A stretch of DNA of 32,000 bases from Vibrio vulnificus CMCP6 (GCF_000039765.1 NC_004459.3:2151127-2183126); one strand, 5' to 3'. Numbered from the stretch's first letter, positions 2,952 to 21,470 are shown. Numbers and translations are program-made. Notes: generated from the sequence alone by a model not told the origin.

Positions 2952-3944
2952 CTAGCTTGCGCTGCTATCAAAATCTTGTTTTGCGCCAAATTGACGCATT
3001 GAATACGCGACGCGCTCTTCTGCTGAGGGATAGACCAGTGGTGCGCCCAAGTTCTCAATATGGTGTAAGCGTGGTAAAAGCCCGGCACCGTTGGCAATTT
3101 GAATCGCTAGACCAGGGCGAGCGTTGAGTTCCAATACCATTGGTCCTTCTTCTTTATCCAACACCATATCGGTACCGAGATAACCCAGTCCGGTCATTTC
3201 CCACGCACTGGCTGCCAAGGTCAACAAACGTTGCCAATGAGGCACTTGTAAAGTAGCAAGATCTTTTCCTGTGTCTGGATGGTGAGTGACAGGTTGGTTG
3301 AACTGCACGGCACGAATCGCTTTCCCCGTCGCAATATCAATACCTACCCCAACCGCACCTTGGTGCAAGTTGGCTTTTCCATCCGACGCGGCCGTTGAGC
3401 AACGCATCATCGCCATCACAGGGTAGCCTTTGAATACGATGATCCGCACATCGGGCACCCCTTCGAAGCTGAATCCGTCAAAGCAGTTATCAAACTTAAT
3501 TAAGTTCTCAACCACGGCGACATCGTTCTTACCACCAAGAGAGAATAACCCCGCTAGAGCATTAGAAATATGGCGTTCGATCTCTTCTTTGTTGATGGTG
3601 GAACCCGAAGGTTTGGTGTAAACGCCCTCTTTGTGCGAGGTCACCACAAGAATGCCTTTACCGCCACTACCACGAGCGGGTTTGATCACAAACCCGGGCC
3701 AATCTTTGACCATTTCGTGAATGCGTTTCACATCGGCCTGATTGCTGATCACACCAATCAACTGCGGCACTGTACAGCCCGCACGTTGCGCGATGATCTT
3801 GGTTTTGAGCTTGTCATCCACCAAAGGGTATTTGGAACGGTCGTTGTAGCGACCAATATAAGCGTGGTTACGCTTATTCATCCCCATGATCCCTTTGCGT
3901 CGCAGCTTCATCGGTGATGTGTACTTAGACAAAAAGGAGAACAT
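2952..3944 (-). CDS. alpha-L-glutamate ligase-related protein (RimK-like ATP-grasp)
   Basis: 330-aa ORF with no signal peptide. ATP-grasp features: 'FVIKPARGSGGKGILVV' (P-loop-like Gly-rich segment) and 'LELNARPGLAIQ' (C-terminal Mg/ATP motif). The N-terminus 'GIMGMNKRNHAYIGRYN' is typical of the RimK-related family found next to 7TM-transglutaminase genes (from memory). Confidence 0.85.
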   Translation of the reverse strand: MFSFLSKYTSPMKLRRKGIMGMNKRNHAYIGRYNDRSKYPLVDDKLKTKIIAQRAGCTVPQLIGVISNQADVKRIHEMVKDWPGFVIKPARGSGGKGILVVTSHKEGVYTKPSGSTINKEEIERHISNALAGLFSLGGKNDVAVVENLIKFDNCFDGFSFEGVPDVRIIVFKGYPVMAMMRCSTAASDGKANLHQGAVGVGIDIATGKAIRAVQFNQPVTHHPDTGKDLATLQVPHWQRLLTLAASAWEMTGLGYLGTDMVLDKEEGPMVLELNARPGLAIQIANGAGLLPRLHHIENLGAPLVYPSAEERVAYSMRQFGAKQDFDSSAS

Positions 3945-3947
3945 AGA

Positions 3948-5453
3948 TTAATCCTCCACCAATGGCTTAAAGCGGCGCAGTTCTGTAATGCGGTATCCAG
4001 TGTAAGTACCCAATAGCAGAATTGCCGCCAGTACCACAAGCTGAAGACCAATGAAGTTAAAGGTTAGGTGCTGGATGTATGGGTTAGTCATGCCAAGGTA
4101 AACCAATACTGCGGTAAATAATGAACCACCGCCTTGCAGTACCACCTCTTTCGCGCCTTCTTCTTCCCACAAGATGGACATACGTTCGATGGTCCATGAC
4201 AAGATGATCATTGGGAAGAAGGTGATAGAAAGGCCTTCGGTTAGACCAATCTTGAATGCCACGACGGTGAACACGGAAATAATCAGAATAACGGTAATAA
4301 TGACCGCAGATATCCGCGCAACCAACAGCAAGTTCAGCTTGGAGAGGTAGCTACGAATGATCAAACCCGTACCCACAATCAATAAGAAACCGACAATCCC
4401 CGTAACCAGTTGCGTCTGTACAAACGCCACGGCAATCAGTACGGGCATAAAGGTGCCGGATGTTTTCAAACCAATGATGACGCGCAAGAACACCACAATG
4501 AGTGCGCCAATCGGCACCAACATGATGGTCTTAAACATCGCTTGTTCTTCGAGAGGTAAGCTGTGAATCGAGAGGTTCAGTAGGCCATCGGCTTCCACTT
4601 TGTTGTTGGTTGCCGCTTGCGGTGAAATGTCTTGCGCAATCATGGAGAAATGCACTTGGCTATTTTGACCACCGACCAAATCCAGTAGCGATACGTTAGA
4701 ATCATCCCATACCAGCAAGTTGCCTTGGTCAGCGTGTTGCTCAGAGTTTGGCGAGAATAGAACCCAAGATTGCCCATCCCACACTTGAATCATTGATTCA
4801 ATAGTTTGGCGACGACGACCATCTTCCAAAGCGATGACTCCGACCATTTTGCTTTGAACATCGGCAGTCGAAAGCAGTTTGTAGATGGTGGTGGCACGGT
4901 CAGCGTTGTTAAGCAGTAGCGCTGCGTTTTGGCTGTCGGGATCGTTGAGTGTCTTGATCAACTCGCGCGTGAACGTGATGTTATCAGATGAGCGAGCCAT
5001 CGCGCGCTCAATTAAGGCTTTCGCGGCTGTTTGTTCCGGATTAGAGTAGGTCGGTTTGTTGATCGGCTCAGTGGGCGGTTGTACGGTCACTTTTGCCTGT
5101 GGGTCCACTAGAAACTGTGTTTTGTAGTAAATCGTTTGTGGGCCACTCGCCTGACGGATCGACCACTCGGCGCGACGACCCGATGCGGTATTAACGTAAG
5201 AGACGCCATAGCCTGGAGACGATGCTGTCTCATTGATCAAGGTGAAGCCATTTTGAGTATGAGGTGCTGCAAGTGAGGCTTTCACCTCTTGACCGCTGGC
5301 GTTAAATTCAATGCGCGCTTCAATATCCCAGATCTGGCGGCTTTCGCCGGGTGTCCATGGCACGCCATAGGTTTGATGGCGAAACACGCTGAGTGTTATC
5401 CCTGCGACAATCAGCAGGATGATAGAAAGATAAAAGGGAACTCGGGAAGTCAT
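3948..5453 (-). CDS. membrane protein: N-terminal TM, ~300-aa extracytoplasmic transglutaminase-like (inactive) domain, C-terminal ~7-TM bundle
   Basis: 501-aa ORF. It has a hydrophobic N-terminal helix 'FYLSIILLIVAGITLSVF', then a long hydrophilic region, then about seven hydrophobic segments from 'TIMLVPIGALIVVFL' onward. The whole protein contains no cysteine. Gaps of 3 nt and 7 nt to its neighbours. Confidence 0.75.
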   Translation of the reverse strand: MTSRVPFYLSIILLIVAGITLSVFRHQTYGVPWTPGESRQIWDIEARIEFNASGQEVKASLAAPHTQNGFTLINETASSPGYGVSYVNTASGRRAEWSIRQASGPQTIYYKTQFLVDPQAKVTVQPPTEPINKPTYSNPEQTAAKALIERAMARSSDNITFTRELIKTLNDPDSQNAALLLNNADRATTIYKLLSTADVQSKMVGVIALEDGRRRQTIESMIQVWDGQSWVLFSPNSEQHADQGNLLVWDDSNVSLLDLVGGQNSQVHFSMIAQDISPQAATNNKVEADGLLNLSIHSLPLEEQAMFKTIMLVPIGALIVVFLRVIIGLKTSGTFMPVLIAVAFVQTQLVTGIVGFLLIVGTGLIIRSYLSKLNLLLVARISAVIITVILIISVFTVVAFKIGLTEGLSITFFPMIILSWTIERMSILWEEEGAKEVVLQGGGSLFTAVLVYLGMTNPYIQHLTFNFIGLQLVVLAAILLLGTYTGYRITELRRFKPLVED

Positions 5454-5460
5454 AGCCTAC

Positions 5461-6207
5461 CTATTTTTTCTTTTGTCCGGTTTGAATGTAACTGCGACTA
5501 ACGTCAACAAGAGCAATATCGCGAATAAACTCACGACCTAAAAGAACGGGATGGCTCATTTGTGAGCGGTCTGCCAATGTAAATTGCGCCTTTTCTTTGA
5601 TTTCGCCCACTTTGACCCACAGCTCGACGACTGCGCGGCGTTCGGTATCGTCGTTGGTCGACTGACGAATCTTCACATAACGAATCACGGGTGCTTCAAT
5701 CCAGTTTTGGTCAGTGCCAGGTTGTTCTGGATCTGAGAGGTGGAAGCGAACCCAATCTTTACCATTGCGCTCGAACATTTCGATGTCAACGGCATTCAGT
5801 GATGATGTGGTTGCCCCGGTATCAACACGTGCATCAAAAGACTGATTGATCGACTCAATGGTCACTTTTTCAATCGCACCCAAGATGATTTGATTTTTGG
5901 CTGGTGCTGGTGGCGCGGCAATGACTTTAGGTTCAGGTTTTTTCTCTTCAGACGACGCCAAACTTTGCTGTTGAGTCAACTGAAGATGTTCAACTTGTTT
6001 TTGTAACTCGGTAATTTGAGTCTCAAGGCTCTCGATGTAATCGACTTGGTTTGAGGATTGCAGAGTGAGATTCTCTATCTTATTCGTAATACGAGTCTCA
6101 GAGTCTTGGAGGGCGGTCAGGGTTTTCTGATGATATTGCTCACCATTGGTTAAAGTACAGCCAGATAACAAAACGAGAGCGAGTACTGGCGTCAATCTTA
6201 TAAACAT
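5461..6207 (-). CDS. lipoprotein with C-terminal retropepsin-like aspartic protease domain (family usually labelled 'putative ATP-dependent zinc protease')
   Basis: 248-aa ORF. It has a signal peptide plus lipobox 'LVLLSGC', and a heptad-rich region 'IESLETQITELQKQVEHLQL'. A Pro-rich linker 'KKPEPKVIAAPPAPAK' follows, then 'ARVDTGATTSSLNA' (the D-T-G-A aspartic protease signature). AAGG lies 6 nt upstream of the ATG. Confidence 0.75.
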   Translation of the reverse strand: MFIRLTPVLALVLLSGCTLTNGEQYHQKTLTALQDSETRITNKIENLTLQSSNQVDYIESLETQITELQKQVEHLQLTQQQSLASSEEKKPEPKVIAAPPAPAKNQIILGAIEKVTIESINQSFDARVDTGATTSSLNAVDIEMFERNGKDWVRFHLSDPEQPGTDQNWIEAPVIRYVKIRQSTNDDTERRAVVELWVKVGEIKEKAQFTLADRSQMSHPVLLGREFIRDIALVDVSRSYIQTGQKKK

Positions 6208-6263
6208 TGAATGCCTTAAAAAGTGAATTAGGGGAATAAGTTATTGTAAAGAGGAGTGTAGCG

Positions 6264-6290
6264 TATAAAAAAGGATGCGTGAAGCATCCT
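6264..6290 (-). terminator. rho-independent terminator downstream of cmoB
   Basis: On the minus strand: AGGATGC-TTCAC-GCATCCT followed by TTTTTAT (arms 6284-6290 and 6272-6278). About 50 nt past the cmoB stop. Confidence 0.65.
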
Positions 6291-6339
6291 CTTGTTAGGG
6301 TTTAGTGATACTCAAATTATTGAGTCAAAACCGTGTCAA

Positions 6340-7311
6340 TTATGGCTTTTTCGCCACCAAAATTGCGCGGCGAGGTGCTGGATAACCTTCCACCGTTTTG
6401 CTCGGGTCATTCTGATCGAGATAATCAGGCAGTGAATTGTGAGTCATCCAATTGGTGGTGCGTTGCTCGTCGACAGAGGTGACGTTTTCGTCCACGATGC
6501 GCACGTCTTCAAAGCCAACCAATTCTAACCACACTTTTAAAGCGCGAGCTGAAGGGAAGAAATACACATTGCGCATTTGAGCGTAGCGTTCCTTGGGAAC
6601 CAAAACTGCCGTTTCATCCCCTTCAATCACCAAGGTTTCCAGAATCAATTCACCGCCGGAGACAAGCTGATCTTTCAGTTGAATTAAGTGATCAAGCGGA
6701 GAGCGACGGTGGTACAACACCCCCATGCTGAAAACAGTATCGAACGCTTCAAGCTTTGGTAGCTGTTCAATGCCCAATGGCAGCAGGTGTGCACGTTGAT
6801 CGCCACCCATTAACTTACGGATCGCTTCAAACTGAATTAAAAACAGGTGTGATGGATCAATACCCACGCACAGACGTGCGCCTTCACCTAACATGCGCCA
6901 CATGTGATAACCGTTACCACAACCGACATCCAGCACGCTGCGATTTTTCAATGGTGAAATATGAGGCAGAACACGGTCCCATTTCCAGTCACTGCGCCAT
7001 TCGGTGTCAATATGAATGCCGTGAACGGTATAAGGGCCTTTGCGCCAAGGGTGGAAAGTACGCAGCAAGCTTTCAAGCTTCTTCAACTCGCCTTGATGGA
7101 ACGGGGTGTCATTGCTAATGGTGACAGAGTGCTTAATGTCTATCTGATCGGGTGCGCCTTCTGGGATCTTATTGAGTGCTTTTAACCAGCGAGGGAAATC
7201 ACCATGCTCAGCATTTTGCCAATCTGTTAGCTGTTGAGGTAGAACGTTGAGCCATGGCTGAAGACGAGTGTCTTGAGCGATTAACTGGTAAAAATTAGCA
7301 AAATTAAACAT
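6340..7311 (-). CDS. cmoB: tRNA U34 carboxymethyltransferase CmoB
   Basis: 323-aa ORF with full-length resemblance to CmoB. SAM-methyltransferase motif '[11 protein letters not shown]'. Adjacent to cmoA, as in E. coli. Confidence 0.93.
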
Positions 7312-7367
7312 CGTTTTTCACTGAGTAATAAATTAAAAATTGACACTAAATGCGAAACGTTAAGACT

Positions 7368-7464
7368 TTCTCGCTTCTCGCTTCTCGCTTCTCGCTTCTC
7401 GCTTCTCGCTTCTCGCTTCTCGCTTCTCGCTTCTCGCTTCTCGCTTCTCGCTTCTCGCTTCTCG

Positions 7465-7465
<1 letters not shown>
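7368..7465. repeat. perfect tandem heptanucleotide array, (TTCTCGC)14 on + strand = (GCGAGAA)14 on the gene strand
   Basis: Counted directly: 14 units starting at 7368+7k (k=0..13) with no mismatch. The last base (7465) is part of the cmoA stop codon TAG (complement of 7465-7467). Confidence 0.97.
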
Positions 7466-8214
<749 letters not shown>

Positions 8215-20402: not shown

Positions 20403-21470
20403 ATGAGAGAAAAGAAAAGCAAACGGAATGATTACGTAGTACCGATAGCAGTATCGGCGGCTCTGCACGTTGTTTTAGTTATCGCACTTTTGTGGGGCGC
20501 GGACTTTACCATGTCTAAACCACAGCCGAGTGGGCAGATGGTCCAGGCAGTCGTCATTGACCCTAACTTAGTAAAACAGCAAGCCAATCAAATTCGTCAG
20601 CAGCGCGAATCGGCAGCAAAAAAAGAGCAAGAAAGATTAGATAAACTGCGTCGTGAAGCGGAGCAACTGGAGAAGAATCGCAAAGCGGAAGAAGATCAGT
20701 TGCGCAAGCTAAAGGAGCAACAAGCGCGTGATGCCAAAGCGGCGCGAGAAGCCGAAGAAGCGCGTAAACAGAAAGAACAAGAGAAGAAAGTCGCAGAAGA
20801 AAAAGCACGCAAAGAGAAAGAGCGTGTTGCAAAGCTTGAAGCTGAGCGAAAAACAAAAGAAGAAGCGATTAAAAAAGCGGAACAAGAACGTTTAGCGAAA
20901 GAAGCAGCCATCGCGAAAGCAGAGCAAGAACGCATCGCGAAGGAAAAAGCGGCAAAAGAGGCAGAAGAAAAAGCTCGCCGTGAAAAAGAAGCCGCCGCTA
21001 AGGCAGAGCAAGAGCGCATAGCGAAGGAAAAAGCCGCCAAAGAGGCCGCAGAAAAGGCGCGTAAGGAAAAAGAACGTTTAGAGCGTCTTGAGCGTGAACG
21101 TAAAGAACAAGAAGCCGCACTGAACGACATTTTTGCTGGGCTTGAAACTGAATCTAGCCAAAACAGCGCAGCGAGAAGCCAGCATGTTCTGGATGAAAAA
21201 AATCGTTATGGTGCTATTTACACACAACTTATTCAGCAACGCCTTCTTAAGGATGAATATTTGTTGGGAAAGTCGTGTAAGGTGAACATTAAATTGATAC
21301 CAACAGGTGTCGATGCAATCGTCAATTCGGTGAGTATTTTGGAAGGGGATACCCGAGTCTGTAACGCGGCTAAGAGCGCTATTTTGCAGGTTGGTTCCTT
21401 CCCAATGCCAGCGGATGATGCAGTGAGACAAGAGCTGCGTAATATCAATTTAACTGTTGATTTCGAATAA
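20403..21470 (+). CDS. tolA: Tol-Pal system protein TolA
   Basis: An N-terminal TM 'VPIAVSAALHVVLVIALLW', a long K/E/A-rich helical domain II, and a C-terminal globular domain. It occupies the tolA position between tolR and tolB. Confidence 0.92.
   Translation: MREKKSKRNDYVVPIAVSAALHVVLVIALLWGADFTMSKPQPSGQMVQAVVIDPNLVKQQANQIRQQRESAAKKEQERLDKLRREAEQLEKNRKAEEDQLRKLKEQQARDAKAAREAEEARKQKEQEKKVAEEKARKEKERVAKLEAERKTKEEAIKKAEQERLAKEAAIAKAEQERIAKEKAAKEAEEKARREKEAAAKAEQERIAKEKAAKEAAEKARKEKERLERLERERKEQEAALNDIFAGLETESSQNSAARSQHVLDEKNRYGAIYTQLIQQRLLKDEYLLGKSCKVNIKLIPTGVDAIVNSVSILEGDTRVCNAAKSAILQVGSFPMPADDAVRQELRNINLTVDFE
20919..21080 (+). repeat. imperfect 84-bp (28-aa) tandem duplication inside TolA domain II
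   Basis: Copy 1 starts at 20919 with GCAGAGCAAGAACGCATCGCGAAGGAAAAAGC. Copy 2 starts at 21003 with GCAGAGCAAGAGCGCATAGCGAAGGAAAAAGC. The peptide 'AKAEQERIAKEKAAKEA.EKAR.EKE' occurs twice. Confidence 0.6.

Follow-up and report, generated by a model that had tools for sequence, protein, structure and literature searches.

The rloABC operon of Vibrio vulnificus and a proposed three-part module of the cell envelope

A 32,000-nucleotide stretch of the Vibrio vulnificus CMCP6 genome (GCF_000039765.1 NC_004459.3:2151127-2183126; hereafter the window) carries three tightly spaced minus-strand genes that are almost certainly the V. vulnificus orthologue of rloABC, the name given to the same triad in Pseudomonas aeruginosa in 2025 (Lormand et al., mBio, PMC12239564). 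RloA is a lipoprotein-type retropepsin-like peptidase, RloB a cysteine-free inner-membrane protein, and RloC an ATP-grasp protein. The explanation we favor overall, with somewhat better than even confidence, is an rloABC orthologue forming a three-part cell-envelope module; its specific mechanism, in which RloC would make a product, RloB would present it and RloA would cleave it, we advance more tentatively. Anatomy, and orthology to a system with known genetics, are established, and beyond them we infer. The locus itself is no discovery, the system having been named and genetically characterised in 2025.

In P. aeruginosa (PA14 tags PA14_41710 for rloB and PA14_41730 for rloC), RloA and two paralogues are secreted, dimeric, retropepsin-like proteins with a positively charged substrate channel (PMC12239564). 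Purified RloA cleaves reporters with 8 or 10 consecutive Glu residues, not 6, and also cleaves poly-glutamylated RpsF; the residues needed for poly-Glu cutting in vitro are required for complementation in vivo as well (PMC12239564). The triple protease mutant does not grow in salt-free lysogeny broth and has cell-shape, biofilm and beta-lactam defects. When rloB, rloC or both are deleted as well, the osmotic defect disappears and the other defects are partly relieved, and rimB deletion showed no genetic interaction with rloA mutants (PMC12239564). The authors describe the operon as widespread in Gammaproteobacteria, and they assign RloA no substrate in vivo and RloB and RloC no activity (PMC12239564). 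In a Shewanella vesiculosa transposon screen, disruption of an RloB-type gene raised membrane-vesicle production (PMC12096838). Our literature search found no later mechanistic work on rloABC. The 2009 amidoligase survey of Iyer et al., cited by 2025 papers, is said to have flagged this gene neighbourhood, which is plausible.

Operon anatomy and conservation

The operon and its bracketing hairpins map as follows.

5461 to 6207, minus strand: rloA, open reading frame (ORF) of 248 aa
3948 to 5453, minus strand: rloB, ORF of 501 aa
2952 to 3944, minus strand: rloC, ORF of 330 aa
2899 to 2925, minus strand: terminator-like hairpin at the operon end (12-bp stem with 7 GC pairs; -20.9 kcal/mol, z -3.8)
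6267 to 6293, minus strand: intrinsic terminator of cmoB (stem 6269-6293, U-tract to 6267; -13 kcal/mol, z -6.0)

Only 7 nt (5454-5460) separate rloA from rloB, and these hold the Shine-Dalgarno-like TAGGTAGG ahead of the rloB ATG. The rloB/rloC gap is 3 nt (3945-3947), with a Shine-Dalgarno-like GGAGGA inside the 3' end of rloB. Upstream, the identities of cmoB (NCBIfam PRK15068, 504 bits) and cmoA were upheld. The cmoB terminator insulates rloA from cmoB, and its hairpin is kept in Vibrionaceae cmoB-rloA spacers. As read from the DNA, rloA-rloB-rloC is a self-contained unit between two stable hairpins. An earlier note, made from the sequence of this DNA, had described three minus-strand ORFs with these gaps and with a hairpin on either side; coordinates, strand and lengths all hold, and both hairpins now have folding energies. 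The nearest database proteins, for RloA and RloB queries, were those of V. vulnificus at 99% identity.

An exhaustive HMMER search returned 357 RloB clusters at 50% identity (E <1e-30), and RloB lengths were nearly all 500-530 aa among the matches listed. Loci were then scanned in one genome per species with a query alignment of 39 diverse RloB sequences; the 80 loci kept span Vibrionaceae, Aeromonadaceae, Halomonadaceae, Methylophaga, Cellvibrionaceae and others. Upstream DNA was available at 79 loci, and at all 79 the retropepsin gene lies directly upstream of rloB; rloC lies directly downstream in 80 of 80. Because the order recurs at all of these loci, in several gammaproteobacterial families, the arrangement is not due to chance, and the co-conservation and gene order that the earlier note had expected are borne out. 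RloC is the most conserved member across loci (53–88% identity), followed by RloB (51–85%) and the RloA domain (32–83%). Flanking families are lineage-specific (Vibrionaceae and Aeromonadaceae have cmoA-cmoB, whereas Halomonadaceae have other genes), so the triad is the conserved unit; across the 80 loci we found no fourth universal partner gene. At 20 Halomonadaceae loci (among L045-L080) there is a same-strand ORF of ∼159 aa, ∼72 nt downstream of rloC, possibly a lineage-specific fourth member.

The three proteins

Features within RloA and RloB were mapped as follows; RloC is treated from its profile matches.

6157 to 6207, minus strand: RloA signal peptide with lipobox L-S-G-C, Cys17, Thr at +2 (regular expression and hydropathy)
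5953 to 6135, minus strand: predicted RloA coiled-coil stalk, about aa 25-85 (heptad register and AlphaFold 2 (AF2) helix), followed by a Pro-rich disordered linker at aa 87-105
5479 to 5892, minus strand: RloA retropepsin domain, aa 106-243 (PF05618, DTGA, matches to 9g58/9g59)
5812 to 5823, minus strand: RloA catalytic DTGA, aa 129-132 (sequence motif)
4554 to 5366, minus strand: RloB periplasmic domain, aa 30-300, a beta-sandwich and an inactive transglutaminase-like core (AF2, Foldseek)
4008 to 4553, minus strand: RloB seven-helix membrane domain, aa 301-482, with invariant GxxTxGTFMP, R367, R380 and ERMSxxWEExG
3951 to 4007, minus strand: RloB conserved C-terminal tail, predicted cytoplasmic, aa 483-501, with YxGYRxxELxRF (AF2 helix 489-500)

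RloA matches Pfam Zn_protease (PF05618, E 8e-49), which despite its name is a family of retropepsin-like aspartic peptidases. The best NCBIfam matches were RloA3, RloA2, RloA and RimB, each under its narrow cutoff, and the closest solved structures were PDB 9g58 (E 6e-18), 9g59 (E 3e-17) and Legionella 2pma. Three motifs, R-x-D-[TS]-G-A, F-T-L-x-D-R and L-L-G-R, are kept across 79 loci. The P. aeruginosa poly-Glu contacts were mapped through an alignment to 9g58 by their offset from the catalytic Asp, which assumes that no indel separates the RloA of P. aeruginosa from that of P. fluorescens. By that mapping K46, R92, K95, K97, R114 and R137 (around catalytic D48) correspond to R127, R176, K179, R181, R191 and R214 here (around D129), all basic. 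Within 40 Vibrio RloA sequences R127, R181, R191 and R214 are invariant, and R176 is conserved in at least 90%. Because every mapped contact residue is basic, V. vulnificus RloA likely keeps the poly-Glu protease specificity. No second RloA paralogue was found within the window. At two Cellvibrionaceae loci (L048 and L055) the active site of the RloA encoded in the operon is degenerate, reading DDEA and DTAL rather than D[TS]GA, next to intact rloB and rloC, and these two proteases may be inactive.

The N-terminus of RloA, MFIRLTPVLALVLLSGC, has a basic n-region, a hydrophobic h-region and a lipobox, as bacterial lipoproteins do. The lipobox Cys17 is the sole cysteine of the V. vulnificus protein, and most Vibrionaceae orthologues likewise have a single one. 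A lipobox is present in 72 of the 76 operon-linked orthologues with the active-site motif, and at +2 after its Cys 67 of 71 proteins have Ala, Thr, Val or Ser; under the rule for sorting in E. coli such residues, including the Thr here, suggest outer-membrane anchoring. Between anchor and domain lies the predicted stalk. Its best heptad register places Leu, Ile, Val, Met or Phe at 12 of 22 a/d positions, vs 1–7 in the other registers. The full-length AF2 model of RloA was poor (predicted local distance difference test (pLDDT) 56), and we used it only for a continuous helix over residues 6-85 (pLDDT 68–83 at 21-80) and for the disordered linker at 87-112 (pLDDT <50). Outside Vibrionaceae tblastn detected no stalk sequence. 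Across 72 loci the lipobox Cys and the catalytic Asp are 103–130 aa apart (interquartile range 113–118), and heptad periodicity persists in related stalks, with a median of 0.69 hydrophobic at a/d positions vs a background of 0.36. The stalked lipoprotein appears to be the common form of RloA outside Pseudomonas. Halomonadaceae stalks (e.g. L049, L057 and L058) have a conserved Cys within the coiled coil, in an R-C-D/E motif found in none of the Vibrio stalks; if the stalk is dimeric, this Cys could link its two chains by a disulfide.

RloB matches Transglut_i_TM (aa 24-183, E 1e-59) and 7TM_transglut (aa 255-498, E 1e-107), Pfam families PF14400 and PF14402. Residues 10-501 align end to end with positions 11-508 of NF052267, ‘osmotic stress tolerance membrane protein RloB’. 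The score of 342 bits is under the cutoff of 900 of that Pseudomonas-specific exception model, which makes the protein an orthologue-level relative rather than a narrow-model match. The AF2 model (pLDDT 80, predicted template modelling score 0.60) has a transmembrane (TM) helix at 4-29, a beta-sandwich at 39-116, a transglutaminase-like core at 138-276, seven helices at 301-482 and a C-terminal helix at 489-500. RloB contains no cysteine, so it cannot hold a Cys-His-Asp triad. Cys is also absent from the periplasmic domain in 34 of 39 diverse homologues, and no column of that domain has a conserved Cys or His. With Foldseek the periplasmic part alone matched, to the Cytophaga transglutaminase-like structure 3isr (E 1e-8).

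Conservation in RloB is concentrated in the membrane domain and the tail: the mean top-residue frequency is 0.40 in the periplasmic domain, 0.62 in the seven-helix domain and 0.65 in the C-terminal tail. The invariant polar residues are R324, G328-x-x-T-x-G-T-F-M-P337, R367, R380, E423-R424...W429-E430-E431-x-G433 and Y484-x-G-Y-R-x-x-E-L-x-R-F495; in the tail Y484, G486, R494 and F495 are invariant, and R488 and E491 likewise in A2. From the positive-inside rule and the AF2 helix boundaries, we place all of the invariant charged and polar motifs on the predicted cytoplasmic face. The C-terminus was also considered as an acceptor like that of RimK substrates and rejected: the tail ends are variable, often non-acidic, cytoplasmic and away from RloA. 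Some homologues carry the NCBI name ‘UUP1 family membrane protein’, and a literature search under that name was empty.

This distribution bears on a signalling device, which the earlier note had put forward as one alternative. In that reading RloB would act as a receptor with seven helices; its periplasmic transglutaminase-like domain would bind a ligand that RloA makes or destroys, and RloC would be the cytoplasmic output. An external domain joined to seven helices with a conserved cytoplasmic face is formally receptor-like. However, no part of RloB is less conserved than the domain that would be the sensor, a pattern which in these alignments is inverted relative to the expectation for a sensor. 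None of the Pfam and NCBIfam matches of the triad is to a known output domain of signalling, ATP-grasp ligases are enzymes of biosynthesis, and the P. aeruginosa epistasis is more simply explained by a product and its degrader. We regard signalling as improbable.

RloC matches Pfam ATPgrasp_ST (PF14397, ‘sugar-transfer associated ATP-grasp’, E 7e-102) and passes the cutoff of TIGR02291, rimK_rel_E_lig, with 563 bits against 314. It is under the cutoffs of RimK models, with 49 bits vs 143 for TIGR00768 and 20.5 bits vs 331 for PRK10446. Alignment to those models begins only where the ATP-grasp core does (position 2 of the RimK profile at residue 43; TIGR00768 position 84 at residue 41), so the RimK N-terminal domain is absent from RloC; by coordinates there are also two insertions of ∼30 residues. 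Matches to the Pseudomonas RimK structure 7qyr were weak and local. The RloC sequence has no TM segment, signal peptide or hydrophobic segment. Taken from these matches, RloC is a cytoplasmic ATP-grasp protein, alpha-L-glutamate-ligase-like, and its lack of the RimK N-terminal domain would fit a partner that supplies part of the acceptor site.

Homology of RloA to RimB, the more distant kinship of RloC to RimK, and the cleavage of poly-glutamylated RpsF by RloA in vitro (PMC12239564) could together suggest a second cytoplasmic RimK/RimB system acting on ribosomal protein S6. That idea is contradicted on several sides, and we give it very little credence: RloA has a lipoprotein signal peptide and scores 70.7 bits against the RimB cutoff of 200 (NF052261), the RimK family model gives RloC 49 bits where the cutoff is 143, RloC is without the RimK N-terminal domain, and in P. 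aeruginosa rimB deletion was without genetic interaction with rloA mutants (PMC12239564).

Proposed mechanism, alternatives and candidate regulation

In the mechanism that we propose, RloC would dock on the conserved cytoplasmic face of RloB and, with ATP, would form an anionic product rich in glutamate, which could be poly-alpha-glutamate in free form or a carrier bearing polyglutamate. Passing the product to the periplasm, or presenting it there, would fall to the seven-helix domain of RloB, and a lipid-anchored RloA dimer in the periplasm, held on a coiled-coil stalk of fixed length, would cleave it. Uncleaved product would be harmful, chiefly in dilute medium. In vibrios the VxrAB (WigKR) system, which responds to cell-wall damage, would probably drive expression by way of an upstream repeat similar to the Vxr box. 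That protease loss is suppressed when rloB or rloC is lost too fits a producer-and-degrader relationship, as does the need in vivo for the arginines that bind poly-Glu.

The candidate regulatory elements lie between cmoB and rloA.

6324 to 6339, minus strand: direct repeat TTGACAcggttTTGAC, directly after the cmoB stop codon; candidate site for VxrB (OmpR-family), resembling the Vxr box
6255 to 6265, minus strand: conserved element TACGCTACACT (consensus TACGCTAAACT), just downstream of the terminator and present in most Vibrionaceae spacers

The exact form TTGACA-N5-TTGAC occurs once in the window vs 0.04 expected, and 14 of 25 Vibrionaceae cmoB-rloA spacers contain it in relaxed form vs 0.09 in shuffles. 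The published Vxr box of VxrB-activated genes is TTGACAAAA-N2-TTGAC (bioRxiv 10.1101/777375); TTGACAcggttTTGAC agrees with it at 11 of 14 specified bases, both TTGAC half-sites being exact, and sits upstream of the terminator hairpin. No sigma-70 consensus promoter was found in a scan upstream of rloA. The TACGCTACACT element may hold the -10 hexamer of the rloA promoter. From the repeat to the TACGCTAAACT element the spacing ranges from ∼73 to ∼160 nt between species, and because of this variation the repeat is only a candidate for a role at that promoter. If real, the Vxr box would tie the operon to the vibrio cell-wall-damage response.

VC1160-1162 is presumably rloABC of V. cholerae, to judge by gene order. 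VC1160-1162 are given as one operon (PMC9201469), and the V. cholerae rloABC orthologues were among the loci most strongly upregulated by VxrB (PMC12239564). ‘Gonadoliberin III-related protein’ is a common misannotation of RloB. In a 2013 transcriptome that compared a pigmented hmgA mutant of Vibrio campbellii with the wild type, a protein of that name and its neighbour (M892_05165/M892_05170) showed differential expression, with ratios of 7.8 and 3.5 (PMC3858670). The same table lists tolB, a beta-lactamase gene and bolA (PMC3858670), consistent with envelope-stress co-regulation.

Several points weigh against the mechanism of production, presentation and cleavage. A product of RloC has been detected in no organism. 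RloC is only distantly RimK-like, and Pfam files it under ‘sugar-transfer associated ATP-grasp’; because of that distance and that class, glutamate as its substrate is drawn only from the protease specificity and the naming of TIGR02291. For the RloB membrane domain, structure searches including Foldseek found no solved relative, and no transport activity is on record. A disulfide is reported as conserved in periplasmic RloA orthologues (PMC12239564), and Vibrio RloA is without it. The single rloB and rloC mutants of P. aeruginosa show defects of their own, so the product is not merely toxic waste, and the authors equally favor an indirect effect on peptidoglycan enzymes (PMC12239564). The Vxr-box match, finally, is incomplete at 11 of 14, lies upstream of a terminator, and is at a species-variable distance from the putative -10.

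One alternative we consider the strongest, if a good deal less probable than the module with a poly-Glu product: RloC and RloB would add an amide-linked group to an existing envelope building block (such as a lipid-linked peptidoglycan precursor, stem peptide, polysaccharide or lipoprotein), and RloA would act on a different or secondary substrate, for example to regulate the synthases or hydrolases of peptidoglycan. In its favor, RloC has its best Pfam match in a sugar-transfer class. Also in its favor are the P. aeruginosa phenotypes, which centre on cell shape and beta-lactams and for which the authors raise a link to peptidoglycan (PMC12239564), the place of the V. cholerae operon within the VxrAB cell-wall-damage regulon, and the vesicle overproduction of the Shewanella RloB-homologue mutant (PMC12096838). 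Yet the RloA residues that cut poly-Glu are needed in vivo and are conserved here, TIGR02291 places RloC with relatives of glutamate ligases, and no conserved glycosyltransferase or peptidoglycan gene adjoins the triad at the 80 loci.

A more specific version of the poly-Glu product can be offered as speculation, and we hold it to be somewhat less probable again than the envelope-modification alternative. RloB-RloC would be a new kind of coupled synthase-exporter that supplies the Gram-negative periplasm with poly-alpha-glutamate, a polyanion that would be the peptide equivalent of the osmoregulated periplasmic glucans; stalked RloA would be a spatially restricted depolymerase, setting polymer amount or length near the peptidoglycan. 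If true, this would explain why uncleaved product kills specifically in dilute medium.

Against this background the earlier note fares unevenly. It had held that no substrate, product or phenotype was defined for the triad, a premise that is outdated because the triad is the rlo operon, whose phenotypes, epistasis and in-vitro specificity for at least 8 Glu are published (PMC12239564). It had itself listed an existing functional characterisation among the findings that would overturn it, and the rloABC paper is one (PMC12239564). Of its membrane-spanning device for ligation/processing or signalling, the first part fits the rloB/rloC epistasis and is still a proposal; for the second we found no evidence. 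Its account of the proteins stands: the lipobox and DTGA of the first ORF (Cys17 and aa 129-132), the second ORF with no Cys and with one TM helix, an external domain and seven helices, as in the AF2 model, and the third as a cytoplasmic RimK-related ATP-grasp, above the TIGR02291 cutoff and without a hydrophobic segment. The profile matches that it predicted (PF05618, Transglut_i_TM with 7TM_transglut, and rimK_rel_E_lig) were all obtained, and its statement that RimK of pseudomonads is partnered with RimB, a protease of the same family, was correct (PMC12239564). Its interpretation as a whole is partly supported.

The stalk and lipobox of RloA, its missing disulfide, the cytoplasmic-face motifs of RloB and the upstream repeat are details that we did not find in the text of PMC12239564. 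The stalked RloA, the cytoplasmic conservation of RloB and an RloC without an acceptor-side domain make the open biochemistry easier to attack, and the same three points predict an RloB-RloC complex and a membrane-tethered protease. A clinically relevant Vibrio also joins a family whose imbalance gives Pseudomonas hypo-osmotic death, beta-lactam sensitivity and biofilm defects.

Neighbouring sequence and comparison with known systems

Three further observations were made elsewhere in the window. A heptanucleotide microsatellite at 7368-7466 (TTCTCGC x 14.1, 100% match; GCGAGAA on the coding strand) occupies most of the spacer from the cmoA stop (7465) to the cmoB start (7311). Its copy number may vary, or strands may slip at this site, and a spurious ORF at 7281-7532 reads it as (SEKREAR)n. 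At 1188-2827 on the plus strand, a GMC-family (choline-dehydrogenase-like) oxidoreductase gene is apparently frameshifted: the FAD-binding N-terminus begins at the ATG at 1188, the rest (1334-2827) is in another frame, the frame switches at a G5 run at 1292-1296, and one extra G would restore the reading. Either the gene is a pseudogene or the homopolymer was sequenced wrongly. Imperfect 42/84-nt tandem repeats at 20722-21074, within the ORF at 20403-21470, encode a Lys/Ala/Glu-rich helical region. From gene order and these repeats we take that ORF to be tolA; such repeats are ordinary for TolA domain II. Neighbouring tol-pal genes are presumably in the window too, judged by ORF order and size.

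Among known systems, the resemblance to 3isr, a transglutaminase-like cysteine protease fold from Cytophaga hutchinsonii, covers the periplasmic beta-sandwich and transglutaminase-like core of RloB. Unlike that fold, RloB is without Cys and is fused to a seven-helix membrane domain that lacks a solved relative.

The poly-gamma-glutamate systems (pgsBCA/capBCA with pgdS/capD) and cyanophycin synthetase with cyanophycinase resemble the triad in logic alone: the gene for an ATP-dependent amide ligase that makes an amino-acid polymer stands next to one for a depolymerase dedicated to it, and the pgs ligase also has membrane partners that export the polymer. The families are unrelated except for the ATP-grasp module of cyanophycin synthetase (weak matches), the Rlo linkage is presumed to be alpha rather than the gamma of poly-gamma-glutamate, and the Rlo polymer is hypothetical.

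The RimK-RimB(-RimA) system for poly-glutamylation of ribosomal protein S6 likewise combines a relative of ATP-grasp glutamate ligases with a retropepsin-like peptidase that trims poly-Glu. It is, however, entirely cytoplasmic, with no membrane component and a RimB without signal peptide, whereas RloC fails the RimK cutoff and has no RimK N-terminal domain; in P. aeruginosa the two systems are genetically independent.

Closest is P. aeruginosa rloABC itself, from which the V. vulnificus operon differs mainly in RloA. The P. aeruginosa protein is a signal peptide and a domain with its catalytic Asp at 48; here that Asp is at 129, the ∼81 extra residues being lipobox, coiled-coil stalk and Pro-rich linker, and the export signal is lipoprotein-type, not plain secretory. 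The words lipoprotein, lipobox and coiled are absent from the main text of the Pseudomonas RloA paper (PMC12239564). The disulfide pair is absent in V. vulnificus RloA, whose one Cys is that of the lipobox, and the V. vulnificus proteins fall below the Pseudomonas-specific NCBIfam cutoffs for RloA and RloB. In both organisms the same three families stand in the same order, with RloB aligning over its full length, RloC in TIGR02291, and an exported RloA that has DTGA and the basic residues of the poly-Glu contacts.

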